From NCBI GenBank assembly GCA_958009085.1, contig OY253678.1:930001-994000 (forward strand): a stretch of DNA of 64,000 nt, read 5' to 3'. Of this stretch, positions 3,471-34,255 are shown piece by piece (position 1 is the stretch's first letter; every line of letters starts with the position of its first letter). The position numbers and the translations under genes were made by a program. The DNA is from Protoeuglena noctilucae (taxonomy: Eukaryota). The notes under the pieces are model-generated. The model saw nothing but the letters and a program-made list of their open reading frames with translations, searched no databases and was not told where the DNA came from.

Positions 3471-4989
3471 TCACTCCCTGTCCTGTGCCCCCTGCAGCAC
3501 CTCCCACGCCGTGGTCAGCCCAGGCAGCAGCGATTCAAGGCCTGAGGATCCCTTCTGAGATAAGGGGGCGCTGGGGGGGAGGGAGAAGAGGACGGGGGGT
3601 GGGGATGGTGGTAGAAGTGAGGGTGGGGTGAGTAATGGTGGGTGGGTGGGTGGGTGAGGGTTGGGTGGGCGTGGGGTGGCGAAGGGGTGGGTGATGGTGG
3701 GCGTGTGCATGGCCCTTTCGCATGCAGCGCACTATTAACCTGGCGACGCTAGTAACAAACACACAAACCCCTTGTACAATCAAGCATATTACCCTGCAAT
3801 AACATCGCAAGCGTCTCACCTTGCAACGTTGATGACCATACAAGGCCCTTATACAACCATACATAAGCACGACTGATTGCAATTCGCACATCACACACCT
3901 TGCGACGTTGACGACCTTCATGCCCGGCCCGATGTGGGAGAAGACGTCCCGCACCGTCTCCAAGTACATGACGCCCTTGTTGGTCTCGTTCATCGATTGC
4001 TGGGCGGAGATCTGAGAGGGGGCAAGGCAGAGATGAGGCAGTGAGAGGGAGGGTTGGTGGCGCTGAGAGAGGCACTAAGGAGAGGAGGATAAAATTTATG
4101 TATTATACTTTTTTATATCTACCCCAGATATACCCCACACTCGCCTTAACCTTGAGCATCTCCGCCTCCACCTGGGCCTCCCGGGCCCTACGCAGCAGGG
4201 CGCTCTCCAGCGCTTGACTCTCCATCTCGTCACTGCGACATGACACGAGAGCACGTTCATATTCATATTGATGGACATCTTCTAATATCATGTGTGATGT
4301 ACATCATCCACATCTCCGCCATCGCGACCCTCACCAGAACCGCCTCTCCGCCTTCTACACACACACATGGATCTCCACATATATAATCTAACATATATAT
4401 TCATCACCCATATCCCCTCGATCCCTCACCGGAACTGCCTCTCCGCCTTCTGCGCATGTGCATACATATCCACAAATAGTTCATAGTACATATAGCAATC
4501 GCCCACCATATTTCCACTCAAACTCACCGGAACTGCCTCTCTGCTTTCTGCGCCTCCCTGGCCGCCCTGGCCCTCGCTTCCTCCACCTCGGCCTCCACCC
4601 TCACTGCGCCCAGCCTAGTTTCCATGTCGATGCGCTGGCGCACTTTGTCCATCTCAGCCGCTGCCTCCAACTCCATGCGCTCCAATCTGGGGGTGGGGGT
4701 GGGGGTGGCAGTGGGGGTGGCAGTGGGGTTGTGGGTGTGGGTGTGAGGGAGTGAGTGGGGCGCTCACACCTCGCTCCATGTGCTCATGTCCCACTCTCCA
4801 CCCCCCACTCACTTCCTCCTCTCCTCCGCCGTCTCCTGCCGGTGCCTGGCCATGGCCATCTCCGCGTCCTGCCGCGCACGCTCCCTCTCCGCCCGCGCCT
4901 CGCTCTCGGTCTTGTCCAGATGAGTCTCGGTAGAAATGCGGCCCTCCTCCGCCTCCAGGCGGGTGCGCTCGCGGAACTTGGCCTGGTGG

Positions 4990-5024
<35 letters not shown>

Positions 5025-6563
5025 AGTGAGGTGCGGGACAGGGGTGGTGGGGGCGTTTAAAGAATGCCATCGTGTCAGGGTGAGGGTGAGGGTGTAAGGG
5101 AGCGTCTGGTTTGGGTCACATGCACGCGTCTCGCCCCACACCCCACGCCCCACGCCCCATGCCAAGTAAATCCTCGCCTGGAGGTTCTCGAACAGCGACG
5201 CGGATAGAACCTTGACCTCGTAGACCTCCACCGTCTCCAGCCACACTCCCCATCCCTGCACCACCTCGCCCATCGCCTTGCGGCAGGCGTCGCGGATGAC
5301 GTGCCGGTTGCGCACCACCTCCTCGATCGTCATGTTGGCCACCTGAGGTGGAAGGGGTGTGGGGGGGGAGTGGGTGGTGGTGGGTGAGAGTGGTGGGTAA
5401 GAGTGGGTGGGTGAGAACGGTGGGCTGTGCGCATTCGCACCATCGTCCTGGCAGGATGGCATATCACCACGCTGCCACACTGTACAACACTACCATACTG
5501 CCATATTACGATACACCCATACACCCATACACCACACCATCACATCTCCCACCTGCGTGCGCACGATGCTCTCTGCCATGTCCTTGATGTTTCCATTGGC
5601 CTTCTCCAGGCCCTCCTTGGTCAAGCCATCCTGAGAGACACAGAAACGGTGAGGGAGTGTGAGTGAGATGAGTCAAGCCATCCTGAGAGACAGACACGGT
5701 AAGAAGGGGGTTGATGCATGTGGATACCGATAGATACATGACCATGCGTTGCCAGTGGGCCACTGCACATCGTTGTGAGTCGCTCACTCACCAGGTACCG
5801 GTATGCCTTGACGGGCGGTGTGACTCAACGACTCACTCATTCTCTCACTCACTCACCAGGTACCGGTATGCCTTGACGGGTCCCTCCCCATCTCGGTAGA
5901 TGGTCCAGATGACCACGCCCTCCACGCGCAGGCCCTGCATCTCACTCGTGACCTGTGAAAGGGGACAGGTAGCGATATGGTGTGAGCCATGGATGAGCGA
6001 TGGGTGTAGCAGACACAGGCGAAGAGAGCCGGGCCCGCCTGGACAGCACCCTTGAGGGCCACAGAACACACAGTAACGCTACCGGCGTTACCTGCTCTGC
6101 CCTGCATGGCCACCACAGCACATACAGCAACATACACATCACAAACATCACATGCATCACCTGCTCCGCCCGGAACGCGACCTTGTTCATGGTGGCCGGG
6201 ATGCTGACGGTGCTGTCGTTCCACCACCGGAAGTGGCGGAGGCCGATGCCGGACTTGATGAGGCGACCGTCGCGGAAGACGAGGAGGTAGCTGCGGGGAG
6301 CGGGGGGGGGGACGATACTCGCCTGTTACTGTCTGTAATGGGCAAGCGAGGGCGGGGTTTGCGTACAAGCTACCAGTTCATGCTCCCCAACACGTCACCC
6401 GCTCACCAGTTCGGCTTGGCGGTGACGGTGTTGATGGCGGCGATTAGCGCCCCGAGGACGGCGAGGGAGACGGCGAGGCTGAGGGTGCCGAAGACATCGC
6501 CCTCGAGCACCACCCACAGCAGCGACAGGAACGACGCGAGCGTCGCGTGGATGGCGCACACGA
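3471..6563 (-). CDS. SPFH/Band-7 (flotillin-like) membrane protein; first exon not resolved
   Basis: Spliced exons give N-terminal hydrophobic segments, then TAKPNCYLLVFRDGRLIKSGIG..KVAFRAEQ/VTSEMQGLRVEGVVIWTI../VANMTIEEVVRNR..VQGWGVWLETVEVYEVKV, followed by an E/A/R-rich coiled coil; stop at 3471. Confidence 0.8.
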
Positions 6564-7430
6564 CCTGCGCGTCGGAACGAATCGTCGTAGAATATGCAGA
6601 AAGTGGAGATGCAAGGGCGGTTCTGTGCGCGCACGCGCGCGCGACGCCCCGGTCATGTGGCCCGGCATCCCGGGGAGTTTTGGGGGTCGAGAAACAAGGG
6701 ACGGATGAGTTGCGCGAAGGCGCAGCAAGTTATAAACATATTCTACCAGTTTATGGTCACCGATGTTTCGAAAACCTCACCAAGAACATGTTCTCGCTTG
6801 GTGCGTGGCGGTTACAACGACAGCCGCTTGTTTAGGAGCGCAGGCACGCAGTCTCGCCGAGGAGCCTCCACCGACGGCACGATCGAATGGCAATCTGCGT
6901 GTTTTCGTTCTCGAACTTAACGAACAGTGCTCCGTCGCGCGGGACGGGGAGCGCCCTCGTCTGTCAGAGCTGGCGGCGTGTCCGCGACACCATGGCCCGG
7001 CTTGTGACCAGCAGCTGGCCGTGGCGGGGCGCCATATTGCGGGTACGCGTACCACGCGGAGAGCGCTGCGCATCTGTACGTGCTGGCGCGCGAGCGCGGT
7101 GAGCGTCGCCGCTATGCGCAACTTGTGGCCTCATTCACGCTCGCGCAATCCGATGCGGAATGCAGATCTCACGCATCAACTGCTGGTGTCTCGCGGGCGG
7201 CGGGAAGCGCGGCCGCGGTAGCGCAGGGGCTGTTTCTGCGGGCCGCCGCTCCCCATAAACGGCAGCCGTCTGTAGACGCGCCGGCTGTCCCCGAGATGTT
7301 TGTCAGCATTTTCTTTCAGCCTGTCATGTCTCCTAGATCTCGAGATCGCTGCGAGAGAGCTGCGGGCCCACAAGAGGCGGACGTCGCTCGCAGGGAGCGC
7401 CACGCGCGACGGCGGAGGCGCAGGCCGTGG

Positions 7431-7944
7431 ATGTCAGGCACCGTGGAGAAGCTTGTGGTCACGCTGACGCGGTGAGTCATGTCATCGATGCCGGCGGCCG
7501 CAGCCGACGCGGGGAGTCCAGGGCTGGGAGTGGATCGACGCTCCGCGCGCCGCGCGCCCCTCCCGCAGCGGCCTGGCTGGAAAGCGCAAGTATCACAAGG
7601 ACGTCCTCAAAGCTCTGGGGCTGTCTCGGAGGCTGGACGTGACCGTGCTCCCCAACGAGAGCTCCTTCCGCGGCGCCCTCTACAAGGTCCGCCACCTCGT
7701 CCGCGGTGAGGCCGATGGCGCGTTTCGCATCGCCGTTTTCTGCAGTCGTATGTTTATGAACAATGTCAGTGGATTTGGTCGCGCCGGCCGCGCGGGGCGC
7801 TCCGCATCGCTGCATCAATGGGTCCGGATGGCGCTTCCCGCCCTCCACTGCCCCGCAGTGGAGACGGACGCGGACTTCGCGGCGCGGCAGAAGGAGTTTT
7901 GCGAGAGCCGGGCCCTGAGGGACCCCGTGAGCCTCAAGCACTGA
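7431..7944 (+). CDS. Ribosomal protein uL30, probably mitochondrial
   Basis: Exons 7431-7471, 7569-7705, 7859-7944: MSGTVEKLVVTLTRGLAGKRKYHKDVLKALGLSRRLDVTVLPNESSFRGALYKVRHLVRVET.. has the bacterial-type L30 signature. Confidence 0.85.
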
Positions 7945-7954
7945 GCGGGGCGCG

Positions 7955-8865
7955 ATGCCGTCCAAGCTGCCGCGGCGGGCCAGGTGCATACCAGGCTCTG
8001 CCTGTGCTTTGATGCGGCACATGAGAGGCTGAGAATGAACCCAGTGGGTTCTTGCGCAGATTCGGGGTACCCTGCCACCATACCCAGCGCTGCACCATTC
8101 TCCCCTCATCGTGCCTGCAGCGCGCGGCGCCGTGGCGCCCTGGGCAAGGTCTTTGCCTTGAAGAGCGAGGGGGACTGGGAGCGCGCGACCAGGCGCGCGA
8201 ACGGCCGCTGCGTCGTGGTGCTCTTCATGGCCCCCGCGCTCGCCAGCTGCGCCAAGGCGCGGCAGGTGTTCCTGCAGTATGCCGGGCTGACTCAGTTCCG
8301 CAACCTGGTCTTCGCCGAAGTGGACCTCGAGGCGAGCAGCTGCGGGATAGTATTCGCAAGTGCAAAGCGCTGCCGCAGCGAGCGCGCGAGATTCGATCTG
8401 CTGCGCTTTGGCTTGCAGGTGTGGGACGCACCCTACCGCAAGCTGGGCGCGGCGACGGTGCCGACGTTCGCGGCGTACATCGACGCGGAGCTGCAGGAGC
8501 ACTTTTCCGGGGGCACGGCGGAGTCGCTGCTGGAGATGCTGCGCAAATACGCGCACGTGCAGGGGCGCGGAGGGGGCGCGGGCGGGCTGCTGCAGCTGGC
8601 CGCGGTGGGGCTGGTGGGCGCGGCGCTGGTGGGCGCGGCCGTGTTCGGGGTGCGCGCGCTGGGGAAAATGGACCGCGACGCAGCGCAGGCGTGGCGGGCG
8701 TCGCTGCCGCGGCGTGCGATCGAGACGGGGGGCGGCCTGCGCGTGGGCATCCGCGGCGTCGAGGCCTCCGGGGCTTCCTCGGACGAAGAAGAGACGGAGC
8801 TCGTCGGCGGATGGGACAACGAGGAGGAGGAGGAGGAGGCGGGAGCGGAAGAGGACGAAGACTAG
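7955..8865 (+). CDS. Atypical thioredoxin-fold protein (no CxxC) with C-terminal TM helix and acidic tail
   Basis: Exons 7955-7983, 8121-8331, 8419-8865; VVVLFMAPALASCAKARQVF..LVFAEVDLE..VPTFAAY follows the thioredoxin pattern; LAAVGLVGAALVGAAVFGV is hydrophobic. Confidence 0.7.
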
Positions 8866-9555
8866 CGCTTGCGTGCGCTGGCACGCCCGCGCACTGGCGC
8901 CGCGGGCCGCCGCAAGCCTACGTGTTCACCTCCTTCTCGGCCATAGTATCTTAGCGGCGGCGCACTCAGATTGCGCTGATAGGACGTGGAGGCTTCAAGA
9001 CTCCGCTCTCTGGCGCGCGGCGGCAGCGGTTGGGAGATTCCCACAGCTGGGGCTCCCTGAAGTCGATCGATTGGAAAGCAATAAGGGCGCTGCTGCTGGA
9101 CGGGCCTGGCGTGCCGCGGATCGGGCTGCACAGCGGATATTTGGCCGTCGAGTGCAGCCATGAGGGTCACGAGCCCAGATTCCCTCCCTCGTGTCAGGCA
9201 TCTGGTGTCGGCTGCGGCGGCCCGCCCCCTGCGGATGCCGCGGATGCGCGGCGTGTGCGGGTGAGACGTCCGCACGTCCTCGGGGCCTGTCGCCCCATCC
9301 TGCCCCCCGCGGGGCGCTCGCGAGATGGATTGCCGACGTTCCTGGCGCTGGAATTCCGCGGACGATTGCCTCTCGTTCCCACGGCCAGCCGCCGTGGCTT
9401 GCAGAGTCCGCTCCTCGCTCGCAGCCCCCGTGATCGTCCAACCCTCAAATGCCGTCGCGCACTACGCTCGCCGTTCATTCCGGGGCTTAGCATTCCGCGC
9501 GTCTGCATTCACGCAGGAGGGGGCCGCCGGATGGCCCGCGCTCGGCCTGCGATGC

Positions 9556-11484
9556 ATGCAGCAACGGATGCCCCTGCCATCGCGCGGGATGGGCGGCAGC
9601 CTCTCGGGCCGCGCATGCGGGGCGTCGATGCGTCCGCGCGCGTGCGGAGGACGGCGCCGGGGCCAACGGCGAGGCGGGCGCGCCGGTGTCGCGGGACGGC
9701 AGCGCGTCCGCCAGCGTGGCTGAGCTGGACGTGGACAGCTCTGCTTTGCCGGACAACTTCTGCCTTCTGGAGACGCGCGAGAGCGTCAAGGACTTCGCGG
9801 ACATGCAGCTGCAGGAGATAGAGACCAACATCCAGGTGACGAGCGCGATGGTCGTGACTGCTTGTCAGGTCGTGACTGCTTCCCCTGTGATCCAATCCTT
9901 GCTCCCGACCAACCAGCCCTCGCTCATGATGCTGTTGCCATCGATGCTGCCACCCTCACCCGTGCCGCCACCCTCGCCCGTGCCACCACCCTTACTGTCC
10001 CTCCCATCCCGCCACCCCGTTACCCTCCCCCGCCCCTCGCGCCCTGTCCCCGCAGTCCCGCAAGAGCAAGATTTACTTGCTGTTGGAGGAGTGCCGCCGC
10101 TTGCGCATCCAGCAGAAAGTCAAGGGGGGGCAGCGCAAGACGACCGAGGAGGTGAAGAAGGAGCTGTTCAGCTCAGGTGAGACCCACAAAGATAAGCAGT
10201 GCATGTGTCGTAAGCTCTCGCTCGTCACACACTGTGCTCATCATTCCCTAATCACGCGCCCTCTCCCCACCCGTCAGCCCCTCTCTGCTCTCACTCCGCC
10301 ACCCATCAGCCCTCACCACCCTAACCCCCTCCCTCTCCCCTCCCCCCAGCCCTCCCCTTCTTCCCCGAAATCTCAAAAGACACTCATTCGGTATTATTAC
10401 CTCTATTACCTCATCTACCCTCTCCCCTCCCCCCAGCTCTCCCCTTCTTCCCCGAGATCTCCGAGGAGATGCTCGACAGGTATTACCTCATCTACGCGGC
10501 CTTCTGCGTGGCGCTGCTCGGGTTCGGGGGACTAGTGGCGCCCATCCTGGAGGTCAAGCTGGGGCTGGGGGGGCAGAGGTGAGGTGTTGAGAATGGTGCA
10601 AGGTATGTGGTGTTTGCAAGGTGCATGCGGGGGTGGAGAGAGGGGCGGTGGGTGGGGGAGGAGGTGGGGGAGGTGCATGCGTGGTGTGGAGAGGGGCAGA
10701 GGGTGAGTCGCACATTGCATGGGTATCATGCAAGCGCCACTCCGGCCCTTCACAGCTGCCATGTCTTCACACCCACACCCACCCATGCACTGACTGCCTT
10801 TCGCCCCCCCTTTCGCAGCTCCCGTGACTTCATCACATCACACCCACCCCATTCATTCACTCCACCCTCGCCCCCCCTTCGCAGCTACCATGAGTTCATC
10901 ACAGCCACCCCCACCCGTGCAACACCCTCTCCCGTCGTACCCCCTTCGCAGTTACCGTGAGTTCATCACAGCCATCCACCTCCCCGCCCAGCTGGCAGAG
11001 GTGGACCCCGTAGTGGCGTCCTTCTGCGGTGGGGCCATCGGCGTCATCACCACGCTGCTCATCGTGGAGACCAACAACGTGAAGCTCAGGTGAGGGTGAT
11101 GCGGGTAATGAGTGGTGGCTGCTCATGGAAAAGGCTAACAACCTCAAGATCAGGTGAGGGCGGTGAGGCATCTGAGGGCGCGGGTGGCTGCAGGCGATAG
11201 GGCTAGGTGGCTGGAGTGGCGGCGCTGTGTTGGGCAGGCCCCGTCGTCACGCCATGCCCCGCCCATGTCCCGCCCTGCGCCCACGCAGGGCCAAGGAGCG
11301 GTGCTCCTATTGCCGAGGGACGGGATACTTGGCCTGTGGTCTCTGCGGAGGGTCCGGGCGCACTCCGGAGGGCGGGGCGTGCTCGGGTTGCACGTCCGTC
11401 GGGCGGGTCATGTGCACCAACTGCTTCGCGACCGGGAAGAAAATGACCACCGAGCACGATATCCGCCTCGATCCCTGGTCGTAG
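9556..11484 (+). CDS. OR: ORANGE protein (DnaJ-like zinc finger, plastid-targeted)
   Basis: LPDNFCLLETRESVKDFADMQLQEIETNI, LLLEECRRLRIQQ, GGLVAPILEVKLGLGG, HLPAQLAEVDPVVASFCGGAIGVI, CxxCxGxG repeats and TEHDIRLDPW end. Start inferred via a 9642-9702 intron. Confidence 0.93.
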
Positions 11485-11745
11485 GAGCCACCTACTCGGC
11501 CGCAATCAGGGACAGCGGTGCACGGAGCTCCGTCCAGTGGGTCTCGCAAAGTTCTGACGCGGAAATGTGCTTCACAGGTCAGCGTTGTGCGCACGTGTTG
11601 AATCAGACTCAGCGTTGCGACCCGCTTACGTTAGTTGCGCTTTCGTCTGCTGCCGCGGTGTGCCTGCAAAGCCCACGTGTCGTGTCTGCCGCGCCTGCGG
11701 TGCCCACGCGGCCCCGGGGCTTGCAACCCGTCCAGGGGGGCTCTC

Positions 11746-13199
11746 ATGGATAGGGCAGTGACGGGGATGAGCGTCATCGACCTGACGGTGCGTAGGCGCG
11801 CTTCGCAGCGCTTTCCCTCCAAAAACGCCCCACGCCCTTGCCCGCCACGCCGCCTACGGACCGTTCGCCGCGCTTCCGCGTGTCGCAGGGGGATAATGAC
11901 ATCGACATTGAGGTCGATCTGCCCGCAAGGGGCGGCGAGGACGCTTGCCCGTCCTCCTCGCTCCCCCGTGCCCTGTTGAGGCCCCGCCGCGCGACAGTCG
12001 CTGCCGCGGGCGTCCAGAACCGCGGAGCATCTGCACAAAGCAAAGGAAACGGTCGCGGCAGGCCCAAGCGCGGCGGCCGGGGCCCGCAGACGCGCAAGAA
12101 GGGCGCCGGGCGTCAGGTGCATCCCAAGTCCCGCCGCGATGCCCCGGCCCTGGATTGGCGTTGCGAGATCGCCGCCGGCGAGATGCGTCGAGCGATCGAA
12201 GCGACGCTCGCGTCGTGGCGGGGCGACGGGCACTTGGTGCGGCTCACGCGGCCGGACGCGTCGACGGTGGACGGGCCTGACGGAGCCGCGATGGCGGGGT
12301 GCTTTGTCACGGAGTACGTCCCGCGCGGCGCCATAGTGGGAATATACCCAGGCGTGGAGGTGAGATGGGCATTTGCACTAGATTGTCACATGCTCGGTGC
12401 GGTGCGGTGCGGTGGGGCGGTCGGCGAGCCGAGGGATGTGGCTCTGTGCTGTGCTCTGCTGTGATGCACGCACTGTGTGCTCTGTGACTGTGCTGTAACT
12501 GTGCTGAGACACTGTGACTCTCGTGACCCTTCTCAGATCCCCTGCGTGGACGGTGGCCGCATGACGGGGGACGCCTACCTCCTCTACTTGCAGGCGGCCG
12601 ACACGCACATATCGCCGGTGAGTGGCAGCTGTTGTGCAGCTGTTGTGTGTTCCTGCCCTTACAGTCAGCCAACGCCCATCGCCACACCCACACCGCTCTC
12701 CCCACCCATCATTACACACACGCCGCGCTCCCCTCATCTCATTGCCACACGCATGCTAAGTCTACCAAACAACGACCCCACACGCACACCGCATCCTTGT
12801 CCTCTCTCCCCACCACCGCAGTTCGACCTCACGACCGGCGAGCCCCAGCCCCGCCTCCGGGGCCGCGCCCCGCACCATTCCCTCGCCCTCGTCAACGAGC
12901 CACCCCCCGGCATGACTTACAACTGCGTGTTTGCGGAGACGACTGACGGGCGTGTGGCGGGGGTGGCGACGCGCGACATACGCGCGGGCGAGGAATTATT
13001 CACGTATTATGGCGCGGAGGAGCGGGAATATTCCGTGGCGGAGCTGGACGATTATACGGCGGCGGCTATGGACTTGCGCAGCGAGTGGCTGTTGGATTTT
13101 GAGGGGCGGCGGTTGGTGCCGATTGCGGGGTGCAGGGGGAGGGTTGGGGAGGGGGAGGGGGTAGGGGAGGGGGAGAGTGAGACGGGGAGCGGGGTGTGA
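11746..13199 (+). CDS. SET-domain protein (putative lysine methyltransferase)
   Basis: Exons ~11746-11787, 11889-12359, 12537-12617, 12822-13199; GCFVTEYVPRGAIVGIYPG and LVNEPPPGMTYNCVF..VATRDIRAGEELFTYYG are SET motifs. Confidence 0.78.
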
Positions 13200-13618
13200 G
13201 TGGTGGGTGTGATGGGGGTGCAGGGGAGGGGATGGGGGGAGAGGGGGAGCGGGGTGGTGTGGTGTGAGTGTGTGTTTGTAATCGAGACCGTCAGCATGAC
13301 TGTGTCTGTGACTGTGGCAGTGACTGCAGTGGTGGCAGTGATGCCGCAGCAAGCGAAGTGTTGAAAAGAGAAAGCGACTTTGCACTTACTTGTTGCTCTG
13401 GCCATTCAACTGCGCGACGCCCGCCGTTGACAACTCCCCATCGCCGCCCCATGCAAAGCAAAGCCGCCTCAGATACACTTATCCATACGCAAACCCATAC
13501 TTATGCCCACACCCATACTCGTATCTCCACATACCCAGCTTAAAGGCACCACCTCAGTACCCCCACCCCCACCCACCCCCACACCGCACCCCCACCCACA
13601 CCCCCACATCTCATCCAA

Positions 13619-16600
13619 TCATCTCAATCCCCCGACCATGCTCCCCTTTGTCCTCTGCGTCGGTCCCTGAGTGAACCCCGGCGGCAGTTTCCGCTTCCCC
13701 CCCGTTTTGCTCCCCGCAGCTGATGGGGTGGGCGTGGGGCGGAGAGAGGGGGTGGGGCCGAGGCTGTCGTCGTCACTGGGAGGGTGGGAGGGAGAGGAAT
13801 GGTGATAGGTGTATGTGGGTGAGTGAGTGAATGAGTGAGGGAGAGGGTGAGTGGGTGAGTGAGATGGATGTTGATATGGGAGATATGTGAAAGAAAACTG
13901 AAGGGGTGAGAAGGGATGCGGATGCTGCAATATCAGCTGAACCCTCAGACCCACCACCCCCACACCCCACCCCACACCCCACCCGCCCCTCACCTATCGA
14001 CCACAATGCTCTCCTTCCTCATCCCCCCCCTCGCCCCCCCGTTCGCCCCACCCTTCCCCACCCCCTTCCCCACCCCCCTCCCCCTCCCCTCGCTCTCACT
14101 GTCCACTTCAATCAAATCCTCATCTCCACTCGACACCTCCTCCACCTCCCCCCCTTTCCCCCACCCGTCAGAATCGTCCGTGTCAGTGCGGTCGTTTGCC
14201 CTACCCCCCGTGGCCTCGTCGGCTGCCGTCTCACGAATGCGGCGCTGGGCGGCGGTGGCCGTGGCTGCGGGGAAAGGGAAAAGGGATCGAATCAGAGGAA
14301 AGGGGCCTTGGATCAGAGCGCAAGCAACAACACTGGGGGCTGATGGCATGTGGTGGTGAATGCACAACAGGTGTATGGCATGCGGGTCGTTAAACCTACC
14401 CACACAGTAAACAGTGACAATTTAGTCACCACCACAACAATCCGAACTCCACCAGCCCCTCACCTCGCTTCGCCCGCCCCCCACCCCCCGCCGCCGCCCC
14501 TGCCCCCTTGCCCCCCTTTGCCGCCCCCCCCGCCCCTTTCCCCTTCGCTGCCCCTGCCCCCGTTTCCTTTTTTCCCTTAGTGCCTTTACTCGCAGCTGCC
14601 TGCGATGCCTGGGTGGATTTGGCACGGCCGCCCTTGGTGCCACCCTTGGCCGTGAATGGGCCGCCTGCAATTGGGGGGTAATAGAGATAGGGTAACTGAC
14701 CAGTAATGCAAATAGTGTTTCATCAACAATATCACGACCATGACAGGCTTGGCAGTGAATGGGCCGCCTGCGATAAGGGGGGGTGGGGTGATGGTAGATA
14801 GACTCATCCATGAGATCATAAAATATCAACTAAACCAACTAATAAACCAACTAATATACAGAGCCAGCCTGTCATGCGCACAATCTGATGAACACCCCAA
14901 GCACCAGCCGCCTCCATCAGATCATCGCTAACGATCATCGCTACCATGACTCACTCCCAACAATCAATCATTCGCTCACTCGCTCCCACCCACTCCCATT
15001 CATCCATTCCCTCACCCGCTGCTTCCATCAAATCGTCGCTCCCCTCATCGTCAAAATCCCCACCACCCCCCACCCCACGCCCCGCCGCCCGCCCCCACCC
15101 ATCCCCATCCCCATCCATATCCACATCCATATGTGAAATAACCGCGTTTGTCGTTGCCTTTGTTTTTCGCGATGTGTGGGTGCGGGCGGGTGCAGAGGGG
15201 GTGGCAGCGGGGGCGGGGGCGGGGGCAATGGATGGGGCGGCGGTGGGGGCGTGGCGACCGCTGACAGCCAGGTTGGCGGCGCGGAGCTGTGGGAAAAAGG
15301 GGCGAGGTGGGAGTCATAACATCGACACATGCAATGCTCGTCATATCCTGCCTGCCATGCACACCTCCCCACATCTCATCTCACCTGCACTGCTGACACT
15401 CTTTCTATCTCCACTATCACTCTCTGTCCCCATCTCATCTATATCCACATCCACATCTCACCTGCACTGCTGCCGTCACCACCTCCCCCACATCCCCCAC
15501 ATCCTGCGCCGCCACTTTGCGAGCTGCCTCCCTCGTCTCCTGCAAACAATGACACAAACATAGCATTATCAGCATTTGTCACTAAAAATGATGTATAGTA
15601 AGTGAATAGCATTACTATCAGTGGGTGGTCAGTTATGTAGACATGAACAGCAGTGGCAGCAACCCACACCCCCACTGCCACCCCCACTGCCACCCCCACT
15701 GCCACCCCCACTGCCACCCCCACTGCCACCCCCACCCAACCCCACGCCCTCTCACCAGCAGCACCCTATCCACGCACACCCAACCCATTCCATACCACCC
15801 ACACACCCATACGCTACCCCCCCTCTCTCACCAGCAGTGCCCTATCCACGCATTCCTGCAGCGCCCCCTTCTCGTCCTTATCCACGAACTCGTGCAACGC
15901 CTGACCCAGGTCCGATTCTGGCAGAATCTCGAGCTTCTTTTGGAGATGCTGGGGGGGGGGGGGGGGGGGACAGGGGGGTTGGCAGGGGTGGTGTTTGGTA
16001 TAATACGAGATGCCACAGTAGACCACAGTGAGTTGAGCTGTGGCAGTGGCACGCACGTGGCTGATGTAATAGTTACCGCGAGACTGCACACAGCCACACC
16101 TGTCCCATCCACAACTGCCATATCATCAACTAATACCAATATCCACTATCCACACCCTCACCTCGGATATCAGCCCTCGATGGTGGCCTGGTTGCAACCC
16201 CATGCTTATAAAATGATAACACCATTATCAACAAACACCCACACACCCCCACCTCGGATATGAGTCTCTCGATGGTGGCCTGGTCCAGTGCCTCGGGCCT
16301 GAGGTTTTCTGGCACCAGCAAATCGCCAGAAGCGCCCTGGGGGGAGCGGGGGTGCGGTCAGCGGGAATCGAAACGGCACACGGATTGTGGTAACAGCACG
16401 GCTCTCGTGAACGCGGCTGCATGCACGTTAGCAGCCGTCTAAGCGATGCAACTATGTGGGTTCTTGGTTATCCCTCACCTGCACCTGCTTCGCCTCCTCT
16501 CTCCCCTATCCACACCAACCCCTATCCACCACCCCAATCCCCCCACCTCTCACCTGCGCCTGTTTCGCCTGTTCTTTCCCCTTCTGCGCTCTTGTCCTCT

Positions 16601-19600
16601 TCTTTGTCCACAGCAGCACATCATGCGGGTTGGCCACTCGATCCACGTAACGCTGGCCGAAGCGCTGGGAGTTGATGGTGGAGAAGCCGGTGTAGTCGAC
16701 GCGCAGGCGGACCAGGGGCTGGGGGTGAGAGGGGTGGGGGGGTGTAAGTTGATGATTGATAGTGGATAGTTGACAGTTGATAGCTGGGAGTTGATGGTGG
16801 AGAAGCCGGTGTAATCCACACGAAGGTGCACGAGGGACTGAGGGTGAGGGATGAGAGGGGCTGGAGTTGATGGTTGATAGTTGATTCTTAATAGTTATAG
16901 TCATACATGTCGATGGTGGAGAAGCAGGTGTAGTCGACGCAAAGACGAACCAGGGGCTGTGACTTATAAGGGGGATTGAGAGGGGGTGAGGGGGTGAGAG
17001 GGGTGGGTGGAGTGAGGGGATGTGAGGGGTGTAGGGGTGAGAGTGAGGGTGGTGGGGGTGGTGAGGGGTGTGGGGGGCGAGGGACAAGGGGTGGAGCGGT
17101 GGGTGAGCGACAGCCCTCACCCTCACTCATCTCTGCTCTCAGATCTCTCACCAGCATGGGCTTCCCGTCCTCCCCCTCCCTCTCCCTCGCCAGTGCCTCC
17201 CCTTTAAGCACCAGGTCGTTTACCCTCCCCGCCAGAAACGCCTCCAGGGACGCGGGGTCGTCGGGGTCGATCTCAATCGCGTCCGCCAGAGTCACCGTGT
17301 CGTAGACGAAGGGCCTGGGTTGGGAAGGGAGGGGGTGGGGGGGAATGATGGTGATGGTACGGTCTCGGAAGGGCGGCAATGTATTGGAGAGTAAGTGATG
17401 CGCCGTGACGATGCAACGCGCTCTGCACGACTGCTTTGTCCAACTGCGCATTTGCAGCGATACCTGTACACCAATCAGTGCCAGTGCCACTCACCTGCAC
17501 GTCTTGAGCTGTATCTTGGTGGCCCGGTAGGCGTCCCCCCCCACCTCCAGCAGCATGCAGTGCTTGGGCTTGGACTCCCCCTCCTGCAAGGCGGTGACCA
17601 CCGTCGACCCCAGCTGGCACACGCGCGTCTCACGGCCCTCGTTGAGCAACTCCAACTCTGGGGATACGGGAATAGAGAGAAGAGGTGACGATCGTGTGTT
17701 ATCAGTGACTCTGACTCTGTGGGTATGGAATAGGAGAGAGTGACGAGAGTGACTGTGACCCCAGCTGGCACACGCGCTTCTCACACCCACCATGACCATT
17801 TCCACCCCACCATGCGTGCTCATTTAACCACCACCCCGTACCCCACTCATTCACCACATCCACACCCCACCCCTTCCCCCCCCCCCCCCCCCCACATTTC
17901 ACCCGGCAGCGACTCGTGCTCGTGCCCCCACAGCACGATATCCAGGAACCCCGGCAGGTACTTCTCCGGCACGAAATTCTTGGCCCCGTACTTCTCCCGA
18001 TTCTGGTGGACCACGAATATCGAGAAGAAATCGTCGGGACCGTACCCGGGCCCCGCGTCGCACCGCTGCCAGAACACGGTGTCAGGCGCCTGAAACGCCC
18101 GGCAAAGGCGCTCGTCGCGCATGTAGCCCAGACCGTAGAGGGCGAGGCGGGTGATGCCCTTTTCGATGAGCACGGGGGTGATGTCGATGCGGCCCTGGCC
18201 GGTGCCCTGGTGAGACGTCTGGGGGGGGGGGGGGGGGTGGAGGGTGGGGGTTAGAGGTGGGGTGTGCATAAGCGATGAAGGGAGTGGCAGTGGCTGGGGT
18301 TGCTACGGTAGCTGTGGCGACTGCGCTGTGACATGGCATGACTGCTGCATAAGCTTCACTAGCAGTGCATGGTCATAATTAGGCACGGGAACAAAGCAAC
18401 CGTGGGTATAATCTGTCCCCATCGTGTCCTCTCGCCTTCCCGAAGTAGTTGACGAGGTTGCACGCGGCGAGGATGTCGATGGCGGAGAGGTTCTCCTCGC
18501 CTGTGGAACGATGAGAGAGCCGGGGTGCGATTGCGATTGGGGTGGCACGCACGACCGATGCACGCTCATTCAGCCACGGCGCATGTGATTGCATGTAACG
18601 CTGAGCTGCGCATCAGACACAAACCCAACCCAATCAGCCAATGGCACATGTCACCAAATCACACACATGGCCCAACAGCCAGTACTGGCAAGCAAGCATG
18701 TTCTGTCAACACACCGGATGGGTCATCGTGGTTTCCGTGAACGGTGAAGACGGGGAGGCCCACGTTGACGCAGGGATCGGTGAGGTTGACCGCGCCGTCA
18801 GCCGTCTGCGGGGGAAGCCAACGCCGGGCGCATGTCTCAGCGTCAGCAGTTGGTCAAAACACTCGCAACCCAAGCGCGCGTCCCCTGGCCCGTGCCGCTG
18901 GCGCCGCGGTCTGCGTTTACCGTCCGCTGGCGCATTCCTCATACACATAACGTCTCATTCACAATAAATCTCTCGCCTGGAAGGGCCGGGCCGCGTTGTT
19001 GAGGACGCGGAAGGACACGGGCCGGTCCCCGAGGGTGTACTTGCGGAGGATCTGGATGGCCTTGACCATCGTGTCCCGCGACGGCTTGTTCTCGTGGAAT
19101 ATATCACCACCTGCGAGCCGGAAAGGCGCAGACGCCAGTCGCCGCGGCACGGGAAGCTGCGTGCTCTGGGTGCGCCCGCCCGCGCACGCGGATCGACCAC
19201 TTGCAGGGCGGTTATCATGCACGACGCTACGCTTTACATCATACTTAGCGTGAATCTGTCCGAACCCCGCCGTTGGCCTCACCGAGGAGCACGAGGTCGA
19301 CCTCCTTCTCCTGGGCCAGCTTAAACACCTCCTCGAAGGTCCGGAACGAGTCGTTCTTGCGAATCGGACATTTCTCCCAAACTCCCTGCGAGCTCGCGCG
19401 AAGGACGCGCCTCGGGCGAGGCGCGCGGCGGCCCGGTGGCCCGGCAACGCTGTGCGCAGCGCGGTGGCGATGGGATCGCGGCGCGGATGTGGTGCGGACT
19501 GCCAGCGATTCCTCATAACTGACACACGTCTCAAGTGACAGCGGAGCGCGTGGCACGGCCCCCAAGTGCGCCTTTCCGTTACAAAAGGGTCGCCAAGCTC

Positions 19601-19703
19601 ACCAGGTGGTTGTCGGTGGCGAGGAGGATCTTCAGGACGTTGTCGGGCCTGCGGAGGGGCAGATATAGATGAACGTGAGACGCTCACAAAGCAACACGGC
19701 CAT
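13619..19703 (-). CDS. MRE11: Double-strand break repair nuclease MRE11 (multi-exon; start approximate)
   Basis: KILLATDNHLG, DLVLLGGDIFHENKPSR, PVFTVHGNHDDPSG, LALYGLGYMRDERL, VHQNR, WGHEHE, QLGSTVVTALQEGESKPKH, PLVRLRVDYTGF..NSQRFGQRYVDRVAN. Confidence 0.96.
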
Positions 19704-20138
19704 TTGCGCACTCTAGCGTCACCGCGCGAGCTCACTCGGGCGTCCCCCGCATTGCGCCCCCGCTTGCTGCCACGGGCGACCTTGAGGGGTGTCAGTCAAT
19801 CGCCGCGCGTGCTGTTTCAATCGAAGCACAGCGTTTTGGCTCCCGGGGGTCGAAGGCGTCGCTATACGACGAGCGACACAGCCAGTGCCCTGCGCCGGAC
19901 GTCAGACTGTCGCCTTCCGCCTTCCCGCGACGGGGCGCGCTGCAAAGCTGCGTCTGGAGAACCTCTGAATGCTATCTCTGTGTTTGTCGGCCTCTCTACC
20001 GATCCCAGCACCCTTTTCTCCCCACGCATCTCCCCTTCTCGCGCTGCGCGGGATCACTGGGCACGCACAGTGGCTGCCGTCGCGCGGTACGTCCATACCT
20101 AGGGTCGCGGGCCGGGAGACGAGGGAATACTTCCGAGG

Positions 20139-21507
20139 ATGGCCATCGACGAGGACCATGAGCTCGAGCACGGCATCTTTGACGCCATCGTGGAGGGGTT
20201 CGACACGCGAGTGCTTTGCTCCGCGTATTATGTCCAGAAGCAAACCATTGCTTGCGCTGCATCGGCATGGGATGTTCGCGTGATCCCGGGACGGCCCGCA
20301 CATGTGCCCGCGCTGCGCGTCGCCGGGCGTCGCCGACCGCGCGCGCCCCCTCCCGCCGCGCAGATATGAGGACTATTTGGACAGTCAGATTACCAAGATC
20401 GACTTGTTCTACCTCGAAGACATCGAGCTCGCGCGGCAGCTGGTCGAGCTCGGGTATAGGTGCGTGGGCGCCGCGTTGGGCGCGCTTGGGGACGACGCGG
20501 CCTTGTCATCGCACAGATATGCGCATATACATCCTCTGAGATCCCACCACAAGCCTGCAAACGGCTGGAGCGAGGCGTTGACAGCTTGCGCACTGGTCGT
20601 CCACTCCGCAGGGGGAGCGGGGAGATCCTGAAGCGCGAGGAGTTCGAGCAGCGGAAGCAGATGGCAGAGTTGGCCAAGCGGGAGCGGTACAGCCGGCGCC
20701 CGCGCGTCCTGGTGTCGCAGGGGAAGAGCGTCGACCACAGCCCTTTCCTGAAGGCGCTGGCGATGAGGTGCATGGCCGACGAAGCTCCCATGGAATGCTT
20801 TGCGATGCCCTTTGGTACTGTCCAAGCGCGGGGGTGCATGCGATGTGACGCGGAGACTGCTGGATGATGTTCTGAGCAGCAAAGACCGCCTTTGCCCCCC
20901 ACACACTGCGCAGGGAAGAGGCGGTGATGAACGGGAAGCTCACGACGATCATCTTCATTCGCGACCGCAACAGCCGCGGGATGGAGATCTCCGGCTACAT
21001 CGACTTCGGCCACCGCTTGCGCACCGAGAACCTGGCGCCCGTTTTCGACGGGAAGAAGCGATTGATGCCCAAGCCGAGCGACCTCAGTTACTATAACTGG
21101 GAGACGAAGGTGAGGAGGGGGGAGCTGCGGCGCAGGGTGGCCGGGCTGGGCCGCGCTGCATAAAACTTCGCGCACCCATCGCCTACTCGCAGCTCAGCTC
21201 CTTCAACCACACGCCCAACTTCCAAGTGGTCGCGGACCCGGAGCAGGGCTTGCTTTTCAAGAACAAGCGCGACCGCAAGATCATCAACGTCGACCCCAAC
21301 TCTCCCCCGGGCGACAACAGCAAGCGCATCACCATCGACACCACCGAGTACCTCCAGGCGAGCGGTTTGATAGTAAGCTGTTATGTGCGACAATGAATAA
21401 TTGTGTGTTGTTCTTAGTAGAACTGAAAATATACTCCAAATTCGTGCTTTCCCTTCGCTCTGTCGCAGGTGGTCTTGTACGACCACGTCACGCGGCGCCG
21501 GGGATGA
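20139..21507 (+). CDS. CFAP299: Cilia- and flagella-associated protein 299 homolog
   Basis: Six exons: [103 protein letters not shown]. Confidence 0.9.
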
Positions 21508-22121
21508 AGGGCCGTGGTGTTTTGGGTGCTGGTGCTCCCTGCGGTTGCTGCGGTTATCGATCTCTGGGCTCTCTGGGCTGCCTCTGTGCAATTGGCGCTG
21601 CGGAGTTGCGTGTCTATCTGAAGGGGGCGTGTTCTCGCGAGATGCTGGTGCTGTCGTGAAGCCCGCTGGTTGATCTCCACATCCCGTCCATCGCACGACT
21701 TCAAACGCTATTCGCTAGTGCACGGCCCGCGCCGACTTTCTTGCGCACACCAGCACGCTCAGATGCACGACGCGGCACCGTGTTTGCAGCATTGCCGGGT
21801 CAGTCATGGCCTTTGCAGCAGCAGCATTGCTCATGAGGCATCGCCTTTGCAGCATCGCCGGGTCAGGTTTGGCGTCCCCCTACTTTCCCAGCACACAGCA
21901 GGGAGCGAAACGACGGGGTAACGCGGGGATCAGAGCACGGGTAAAGCGATGAGGGGGTCGCAACAACAATCGAACCACCACCACCACCAACCATCACATC
22001 CTCGCACATCGTCCCTTCCCACCACCATCACCCCTCACCACCACTACTACCACCACCACCACCCACCCCTCCCCACCACCACCCCCTCACCACCACCATC
22101 ACCACCCCTCCCCACCACCCC

Positions 22122-27558
<5,437 letters not shown>

Positions 27559-32983: not shown

Positions 32984-34255
32984 TCAGCAACGGAAAGCAG
33001 ACCCCTTCTCGCAACGCGATACATCGCATTCGCTGTGCGTGAGGGTGCTGTTGCCGTAGCGGCAAAGGCCGTACTGCTTGCAGTCGGTGATCTCCACACC
33101 CAGCACCTCCCCATGCCCGCCCTCTCGGCAGCACACTCCATGAAAGCTTTTGGATCCCGTAATGCGGCCCCCATGCACCACCACCCTGCTACCCTCGCCA
33201 TCGCAAAGTACGCCATTCCCCTTGCAGCTGGCAATTTCCGCGCCCACCAAGTCTGCATGACCGCCCTGTTGACAGCACACCCCGTGAAAGTCCTTGCACC
33301 CCGTGATGCAACCCCCCTGCACTATTACCCTGCTCCCCTCGCTATGGATCCAAACCCCATGCATTTTGCAGTCAGTGATCTCCACGTCCCGCAACTCTGC
33401 CTGTGCGCCCTTTGAGCAGCAAACCCCGTACTCCTGGGCCCCCCTAATGCACCCTCCCTGCACCACCACAAGGCTACCCACACCATTGCAAGACACTGCG
33501 CAGTCAGCCATCTCCACGTTCCACACCTCCGCCTTCCCACCCTCTATGCATTGCACACCGTCATATTGCCCGAACACCGTGATGCGACCCCTTAGCATAT
33601 CCACCTTGCTCCCGCGACCAACACAGCACACCCCCACAAAAGATGCATCCATCACGTCTGTGTCCACCAGCGTCACTCGCCCACCCCCCTCGCACTGCAC
33701 CCCCGTCCCCACCACCCACACCCCTTCCAGCCGCAGCTCCCCGCCCTCAGCGACCCTCAACGTGTACCCATTACCCAGCTTGGCATCCCGCACCCGCAGC
33801 GTCCCGTTGCGGATCGTCACCGCCACCCCAGCCCCCGCCACCACCACCTCGCATTCCAGCTCCACCTCCCTCCCCCCCAGGTCCACCACCCCGCCCCTCC
33901 TCGCCACCTCTGCCACCTCCTCCCCCGTCGTCGCAACCACCACCTCTGCCGCCGCCGCATCTGCCCCGCTCCCCGCCGTCCCGCCCTGCCCCCGCCCCGC
34001 TGCGCCCGCCTCCGCCTCCACATCCGCCCACGCCAGCCCTGCCCCCCGCATCTCTGGCAACCCCACCACCGCCTCCCACGCCGCCCGCCTCCGCACCTCG
34101 CTCGGCTGCCCCAGCACGTACAGCAGCGCGACCCACTCCTCGTCCGTCCGCTCCGCACCCCCACCCGCCGCCTCCGCCCCGCCCTCGCCCGCCCCCGCCT
34201 GCTGCGGCCCAGCCCCGCCTTTCGCCGCGTCTGCTGTCCTGCGTCGCCGCCCCAT
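32984..34255 (-). CDS. Intronless right-handed parallel beta-helix repeat protein
   Basis: Single ORF with ~23/46-aa repeats GVCCxxGGxAxLxxVEITDCK..GVxCxGEGSRVVVxGGRITG. Confidence 0.8.
   Translation of the reverse strand: MGRRRRTADAAKGGAGPQQAGAGEGGAEAAGGGAERTDEEWVALLYVLGQPSEVRRRAAWEAVVGLPEMRGAGLAWADVEAEAGAAGRGQGGTAGSGADAAAAEVVVATTGEEVAEVARRGGVVDLGGREVELECEVVVAGAGVAVTIRNGTLRVRDAKLGNGYTLRVAEGGELRLEGVWVVGTGVQCEGGGRVTLVDTDVMDASFVGVCCVGRGSKVDMLRGRITVFGQYDGVQCIEGGKAEVWNVEMADCAVSCNGVGSLVVVQGGCIRGAQEYGVCCSKGAQAELRDVEITDCKMHGVWIHSEGSRVIVQGGCITGCKDFHGVCCQQGGHADLVGAEIASCKGNGVLCDGEGSRVVVHGGRITGSKSFHGVCCREGGHGEVLGVEITDCKQYGLCRYGNSTLTHSECDVSRCEKGSAFRC

Follow-up and report, generated by a model that had tools for sequence, protein, structure and literature searches.

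Tandemly duplicated, mutually exclusive exons show coding-like divergence between neighboring copies, with U2AF1 as an example. Among smaller duplications, Pace et al. 2009 (PMC2671141) described short and closely linked duplicates ('doublets') and ascribed them to synthesis-dependent break repair; they give 4 of 824 donors as partial exon/intron and, for two duplicated whole exons, Ka/Ks values not different from 1. In potato RdRp, one tandem duplication across an intron-exon boundary made a new intron, as described in a paper that in turn cites Gao and Lynch 2009 (PMC4974935). Rogers-type intron gain proceeds by duplication of an exonic AG|GT segment (PMC2891723), and the paper on F7 intron 7 (PMC1557585) presents a minisatellite with a boundary-spanning repeat and silent 5' pseudo-sites. 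A search of the literature, covering few subscription papers and no supplements, did not turn up intronic copies of exon edges, diverged in the manner of alleles, as a class extending over a whole genome. Such copies, termed echoes here, are described below for an MRE11 intron and for a larger sample of the same genome.

The window, i.e. the whole stretch of 64,000 nt that was analyzed (G000:C11:930001-994000), belongs to a genome of 26.3 Mb in 27 contigs with 64% GC, and positions without further label refer to it. Its minus strand carries the only MRE11 copy of the genome, the gene being identified by the match of exon 17904-18218 to MRE11 in the PDB (E 2e-25); exon 16554-16718 gives another such match (E 8e-9). 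Based on PDB matches, tblastn, a gene model and an RNA contig, the gene spans approximately 13773-19648 (-), with its 3' part being ab initio only. The self-trained gene model recovers the MRE11 exons, among them 17903-18218, and one RNA contig piece corresponds exactly to this exon. The nearest named homologue is that of Pedinophyceae sp. YPF-701 (61% identical), which points to a green alga. About 400-500 nt from the MRE11 start, a head-to-head neighbor is located at 19970-21507 (+), which is presumably CFAP299. GC donors (AG|GCGAG) appear common in the genome, as seen at window 21357, L049:1833, L049:3315 and L083:8249, and a perfect (TAA)43 microsatellite occupies 23378-23506.

Upstream of the intron of interest lies an exon at 17152-17314 (-), supported by tblastn with P0001 and by the self-trained gene model, which ends with ...GKPML in phase 0. 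It is followed by a GT-AG intron of 433 nt (16719-17151, -; donor GTGAGA at 17151) predicted by the gene model, across which the homologue reads as ...RLPLVRL. After the CAG at 16721-16719, the real exon (PLVRLRVDYTGFSTINSQRFGQ...; 16554-16718, -) begins at 16718. Two copies of this exon start, each with a CAG, had been reported in the intron by the earlier note, and both were found. The proximal copy, echo B (16784-16840, -), consists of CAG (16840-16838) and 54 nt of the exon start (16837-16784) and reads SLVHLRVDYTGFSTINSQ, with 8 of the 54 nt changed (6 silent, 2 missense). The distal copy, echo A (16909-16959, -), consists of CAG (16959-16957) and 48 nt of the exon start (16956-16909) and reads PLVRLCVDYTCFSTID, with 6 of the 48 nt changed (3 silent, 3 missense). 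Both end after 48-54 nt of the 165-nt exon, so no whole exon was copied. Echo B is a mosaic, as all eight changes fall within its first 24 nt while the last 30 nt are identical to the exon (post hoc p 7e-4). When the 54-mer of the exon start was compared with both strands of the 864 kb sampled (see below), it matched the copies at 46/54 and 43/54 positions and the next best site at 34/54.

The copies lie 119 nt (B) and 238 nt (A) upstream of the exon, a spacing of 119 + 119. The spacer between A and B (16838-16908, -) has AT-rich heptamer repeats as well as a C-rich tract, includes echo B's CAG and contains a weak donor GTATGA at 16906 (score 0.6). Between B and the exon (16719-16783, -), heptamer repeats (period 7, 7 copies) resembling the echo end are followed by a C-rich tract and the real CAG. 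Alignment of one spacer to the other scores 22.5, whereas neither can be aligned to the intron sequence lying upstream of A (2.0 and -7.5). The 119-nt unit was thus duplicated again after a first event, and the serial origin proposed previously is thereby supported. Contig pieces from run X3 span 16784-17892 and those from the wild metagenome X5 span 16784-17868, both with 0 differences from the genome among the matches listed, so that either copy is found unchanged in contigs running into the upstream exon. As X3 may represent the source strain, independent read support rests on X5. The segment 16694-16783 is outside the contig pieces among the matches listed; the contigs break at 16693/16784, which fits a 31-nt exact repeat within reads.

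The acceptors of the decoys look intact, as stated before, with scores of 9.4 for the real site, 8.2 for B and 4.2 for A. The copies had also been called frame-preserving, which is correct insofar as they contain no indels; splicing to acceptor B would, however, add 119 nt and splicing to acceptor A 238 nt, both being frameshifts. Use of A is predicted to lead to a premature stop after 22 codons, and use of B to a +119 frameshift with the first stop three predicted exons further on, so that either decoy would create a premature stop, as coupling to NMD would demand. Only the third, exon-adjacent copy runs on into the conserved RFGQRYVDRVANP, and thus this copy should be the used one. We infer from homology that the mRNA uses the last acceptor, the sole in-frame one, and skips the decoys; any decoy use would be frameshifted and its product probably degraded. 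Exon definition and NMD are candidates for why the spliceosome passes over upstream acceptors. For run X9, the depth of 2.02 in bin 16740-17396 equals the value resulting from ~103 exon bases of one listed contig, so that none is left over for the echoes; missing coverage being no proof, this was not counted as evidence. The gene model can also read 50 nt of A and 16 nt of B as micro-exons forming an in-frame insert of 66 nt. This reading was ruled out by the scores of the two donors required (0.6 and 1.2, compared to 7-8 for real donors).

Five more echoes were counted within MRE11, three of them on the donor side with GT retained. The echo of the exon end at 16554 (16473-16502, -; offset 75 nt) kept its GT with a score of 8.7 versus 8.5 for the real donor. 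Further donor-side echoes belong to the exon ends at 16253 (16152-16190, -; offset 91 nt) and 15832 (15746-15777, -; offset 76 nt) and to the predicted exon end at 15462 (15377-15395, -; offset 77 nt). On the acceptor side, an echo at 14746-14781 (-; offset 103 nt) corresponds to the predicted exon start 14664, this exon being ab initio only. Sequence of exon 17495-17657 has an echo in the upstream intron (17757-17784, -; offset 151 nt), with a decayed junction part.

To describe echoes beyond this gene, 864 kb were sampled: the window, a set of 400 kb taken from ten contigs at fixed positions, and a targeted set, likewise of 400 kb, surrounding or adjoining low-complexity intron matches. Exons were taken from the self-trained gene model, which is without GC donors, and outside MRE11 both exons and frames are ab initio. 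At distances of 25-600 nt, the window contained 38 local direct repeats, the fixed-position set 43 (a single coding repeat accounting for 19 of them) and the targeted set 177, while at the control distance of 3025-3600 nt one pair turned up in 464 kb and none in 400 kb. Among 344 repeat pairs, 206 were exon-to-intron; 36 of these, being coding repeats (C1, L069, C6), were kept out of the pool, which leaves 170 echoes. A predicted junction is crossed by 128 of these 170, with donor-side echoes (76) outnumbering acceptor-side echoes (52). They are short and close to their source, with a median exon part of 25 nt and a median distance of 99 nt (n = 170). A junction-anchored scan of the fixed-position set found echoes at 29/1512 edges, where ~10 are expected by chance, and at 28/200 edges in the window and 162/1346 in the targeted set. 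Beside introns of 200-500 nt, 16-21% of the exon edges carry an echo, and introns with echoes are ~100 nt longer. Splice-junction duplication leaves the exon and its adjoining splice site intact and places an extra exon edge inside a lengthened intron. With ~150 exon edges bearing echoes in the sample, the earlier idea of a feature special to an essential repair gene finds no support; the MRE11 intron is an ordinary member of the class.

Several observations accompany this survey. Over the whole sample, echoes concentrate in regions of lower GC and lower CpG with longer, low-complexity introns, and echo-adjacent spacers are AT-richer (GC 0.48-0.53 vs 0.60). In a gene on the plus strand that looks ORANGE-like, the segments 10340-10460, 10801-10974 and 11054-11168 show acceptor echoes, three of which form a set with period 67, and also a donor echo whose changes read as conservative replacements (LLIVETNNVKL vs LLMEKANNLKI). 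Recent, near-perfect intronic tandem duplications occur at 25812-26217 (224 nt, 95-97%), where an existing echo is re-duplicated, and at 2169-2419 (120 nt, 90%). A degenerate, apparently coding repeat family of 144 nt (48 codons) is present in at least three places, window 33077-33429, G000 C1:216545-217800 and L069:4100-5700; it was left out of the echo counts wherever it entered them.

An excess of silent differences in the pooled echoes had been set beforehand as a test, and its outcome was strong. In the 170 pooled echoes, four-fold sites differ at 150/714 and zero-fold sites at 153/2556 positions, a ratio of 3.5 (bootstrap 2.9-4.3). The pooled counts are 61/630 vs 18/1274 for C<->G differences and 77/490 vs 91/2117 at non-CpG sites, and missense differences tend to be conservative when compared with random ones (p = 0.007). 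When detection was based on exon offsets 12-27 and measurement on offsets 0-12, 77 matches were obtained (0.5 false expected) with 34/134 vs 30/520 differences, corresponding to a ratio of 4.4; lenient scoring lowers the four-fold/zero-fold ratio to 1.65. The 146 matches with AG, GT or GC kept have ratios of 2.5-3.7. Echoes without AG/GT (73 matches) give 1.2-1.5 and look like plain decay; many of them are low-complexity or mis-anchored. If a copy decays freely and the exon changes at silent sites only, the ratio should not exceed ~2. Simulated same-chromatid duplication followed by decay reached 1.3-1.7, or 2.4 with 10x CpG mutation in exons only, and simulated pre-diverged alleles reached 2.3-3.1 and reproduced a C<->G value of 0.076. 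The excess at silent sites is genuine, and its size goes beyond what decay would produce. Across echoes, silent and zero-fold divergence are uncorrelated (rho 0.08), and bimodality of silent divergence is weak (log-likelihood gain 3.2; overdispersion p 0.12). A pooled test for clustering of differences was left out, being biased by alignment ends.

The second characteristic is where the likeness between echo and parent ends. Into the exon it reaches a median of 24-26 nt, but into the intron a median of 6-7 nt, compared to 3-5 nt for unrelated sites. Duplication of a whole period, intron part included, is seen in the second MRE11 event with its alignable spacers; class-wide, a spacer near-identical to its counterpart was found for only 1/120 echoes and for 0/23 of those without exon mismatch. 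Weak spacer similarity occurs in 53/120, part of which could come from shared composition within an intron. Likeness is thus confined to constrained sequence and combined with an orthologue-like silent excess, as expected for diverged alleles. From this excess and the abrupt end of likeness, the simplest account is that echo and exon come from different working alleles. We therefore favor, with a probability of roughly 0.55, that echoes are inert, junction-straddling duplicates descended from diverged working alleles and left by imperfect recombination or repair. Such alleles would already have been ~0.15-0.2 apart at silent sites, with introns barely alignable. A break near an exon edge could invade the homologue via exon homology and copy ~100 nt across the junction, whereupon the invading strand would fail to re-anneal and be closed by end-joining. 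One-sided invasion of a homologue closed by end-joining is known from the repair literature. Alternatively, unequal crossover between echo and exon might add copies, or later recombination might place the exon of another allele beside an existing echo. HAP2/GCS1, two SPO11-type domains, Ku and MutS are present in the genome; their respective roles are in the fusion of gametes, the making of meiotic breaks, end-joining and the repair of mismatches.

Ordinary tandem or repair duplications on the same chromatid, followed by decay, would give such a picture if exon silent sites turned over several times faster than intronic DNA, be it by exon-specific mutation, methylation or shifting codon preference. 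Short repair-mediated duplications are already known (PMC2671141). Equal spacing in many clusters (119/119, 83/83, 67/66, 98/95), the ratio of 1.2-1.5 for matches without AG/GT and the near-monomorphic wild samples agree with this explanation. Seventeen clusters with two echoes allowed changes to be assigned: exon-private changes show a silent excess (11/119 vs 0/219), as do distal-private ones (13/119 vs 9/219, p 0.02), while it is not significant in proximal-private ones (8/119 vs 9/219, p 0.22), a pattern that also fits snapshots of a fast-changing exon. Exon silent sites would, however, have to change 2.5-3.5x faster than the echo, with non-CpG sites and C<->G changes included, and the simulations of this process peak at 2.4. 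It also leaves unexplained why likeness ends at the splice consensus, and in the MRE11 intron it is the proximal copy B, not the distal copy A, that departs from the exon at more silent positions. We regard this explanation as unlikely, yet worth serious attention. The allele simulation itself reaches only 3.1, below the observed 3.5-4.4, which speaks against an allelic origin.

Selection might instead keep the echoes as regulated decoy splice sites coupled to NMD or as occasionally translated micro-exons. The intact appearance of the decoys, which are barely weaker than the real sites, would suit this: in 19/51 acceptors and 38/76 donors (57/127 together) the echo equals or exceeds the score of its real counterpart, AG is retained in 47/51 acceptor-side echoes, and branch-like motifs occur in 36 vs 34 of 47 acceptors. 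Neither these motifs nor upstream AGs, which were both compared, separate real from decoy acceptors. The 66-nt insert would suit it likewise, but a good opposite splice site (score > 3) was found at the far end of only 1/125 echoes, the MRE11 insert would depend on its two weak donors, and homologues have no insert at this position. Echo distances are flat modulo 3 (51/66/53), and with this, frame preservation is also unsupported as a feature of the class; the codon-position pattern is not expected from decoy function either, and we consider selection for decoys improbable. Even less credible is a conversion load, in which echo and exon would exchange sequence so often, by conversion or pop-out, that missense changes in the echo become costly and are purged by selection. 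The mosaic of echo B with its 30 identical nucleotides and the low zero-fold divergence would fit, but by reasoning, an exchange rate high enough to be selectable would erase a silent divergence of 0.2-0.25 unless diversity exceeded ~0.25. As for an assembly or haplotype-collapse artefact, the copies are allele-like and the spacer at 16694-16783 is absent from the contig pieces among the matches listed. Against this, X3 and, independently, wild X5 each have the two echoes together with their acceptors on single contigs that reach the upstream exon and show 0 differences, and contigs of other organisms show the same pattern; an artefact is very improbable.

Coming back to diverged alleles as the preferred origin, the present-day samples were examined for them. 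No diverged allele was found over 19.7 kb in the wild DNA run, which had one substitution outside repeats, and the RNA runs showed no substitution outside repeats over the same 19.7 kb. Likewise, neither an echo-free allele nor a close relative was found among wild runs, protein matches and metagenome loci. The changes are unpolarised, as the best protein matches (61% and 67% identical) and the metagenome loci (43-82%) are too distant for silent sites. Over 3600-23300, the contigs of the wild metagenome and metatranscriptome hardly differ from the genome. Eight other runs under the same species label, from other studies, lacked all sampled words, which hints at cryptic lineages under one name.

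Related MRE11 loci of other organisms were also considered (38 found, 23 inspected). Most of the 23 are without an intron at this position; L096, L106 and L110, which are rich in introns, have their own echoes. Seven such echoes have silent/amino-acid changes of 5/0, 4/7, 5/0, 2/3, 4/1, 1/4 and 0/4, with the two 5/0 cases in L096 and L110; these two speak for an allelic origin, the counts of 0/4, 1/4, 2/3 and 4/7 against it. Comparison of strain pairs among these loci (98-100% identical) revealed no hypervariable introns. L096 contains 23 local repeat pairs in 3.7 kb, with exon-edge echoes on both sides (L096:101-1566), and telomere-like CCCTAA runs in its spacers, possibly a mark of break repair. 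L106 and L119, two samples of one organism, differ at L106:217-235 by a GC vs GT donor and small indels, and the intron with this variable donor also carries an acceptor echo whose AG is changed to AT. As a tentative generalization, which we would rather doubt than affirm, intron-rich algal genes in several lineages might gather exon-edge fragments of other alleles, with recombination between diverged homologues starting in exons and aborting at unalignable introns.

Interest attaches to the echo class and not to the MRE11 intron itself. If the copies are old alleles, echoes would be fossil alleles, and past diversity and hybridisation would be readable from a single haploid genome, here for a now almost uniform species whose ancestral silent diversity, or hybridisation, would have been near 0.15-0.2. 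This would bear on why abundant plankton show little diversity, and introns would owe much of their growth, and many intact decoy splice sites, to the process. Whatever their origin, echoes are natural near-twin pairs of splice sites and thereby a direct test set for site choice by the spliceosome.

Compared with known systems, echoes differ from mutually exclusive exons, which are whole, keep the frame and have both splice sites, in covering a median of 25 nt of one edge. Like the potato RdRp case, the MRE11 unit combines an intron end with an exon start, but there a cryptic donor makes a new exon and intron (PMC4974935), whereas echoes stay intronic and, with an opposite site at 1/125, do not turn the duplicate into a new intron or exon. 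Rogers-type gain similarly leaves a local duplicate of coding sequence ending inside an intron (PMC2891723), but the echo unit lies across a junction that already existed, and in MRE11 the duplicate is not removed by an AG|GT proto-splice site. The F7 repeat of an exon-intron boundary also leaves splice sites intact and unused; it is one human locus on the donor side with near-identical repeats (PMC1557585), and its first-site scanning would explain donor-side echoes but not the skipping of upstream acceptors. Closest are the repair-mediated duplicates, which can copy splice sites and exon parts and are likewise short and close to the donor, although junction-straddling copies, rare there (PMC2671141), are the rule here (128/170), differing mostly at silent sites. 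Echoes work like repair-mediated or tandem duplication but fail its neutral-decay feature, by which copies start out identical and then decay neutrally (ratio 3.5-4.4 vs 1.3-1.7 simulated). Short junction duplications were known already as single cases; here they form a class.
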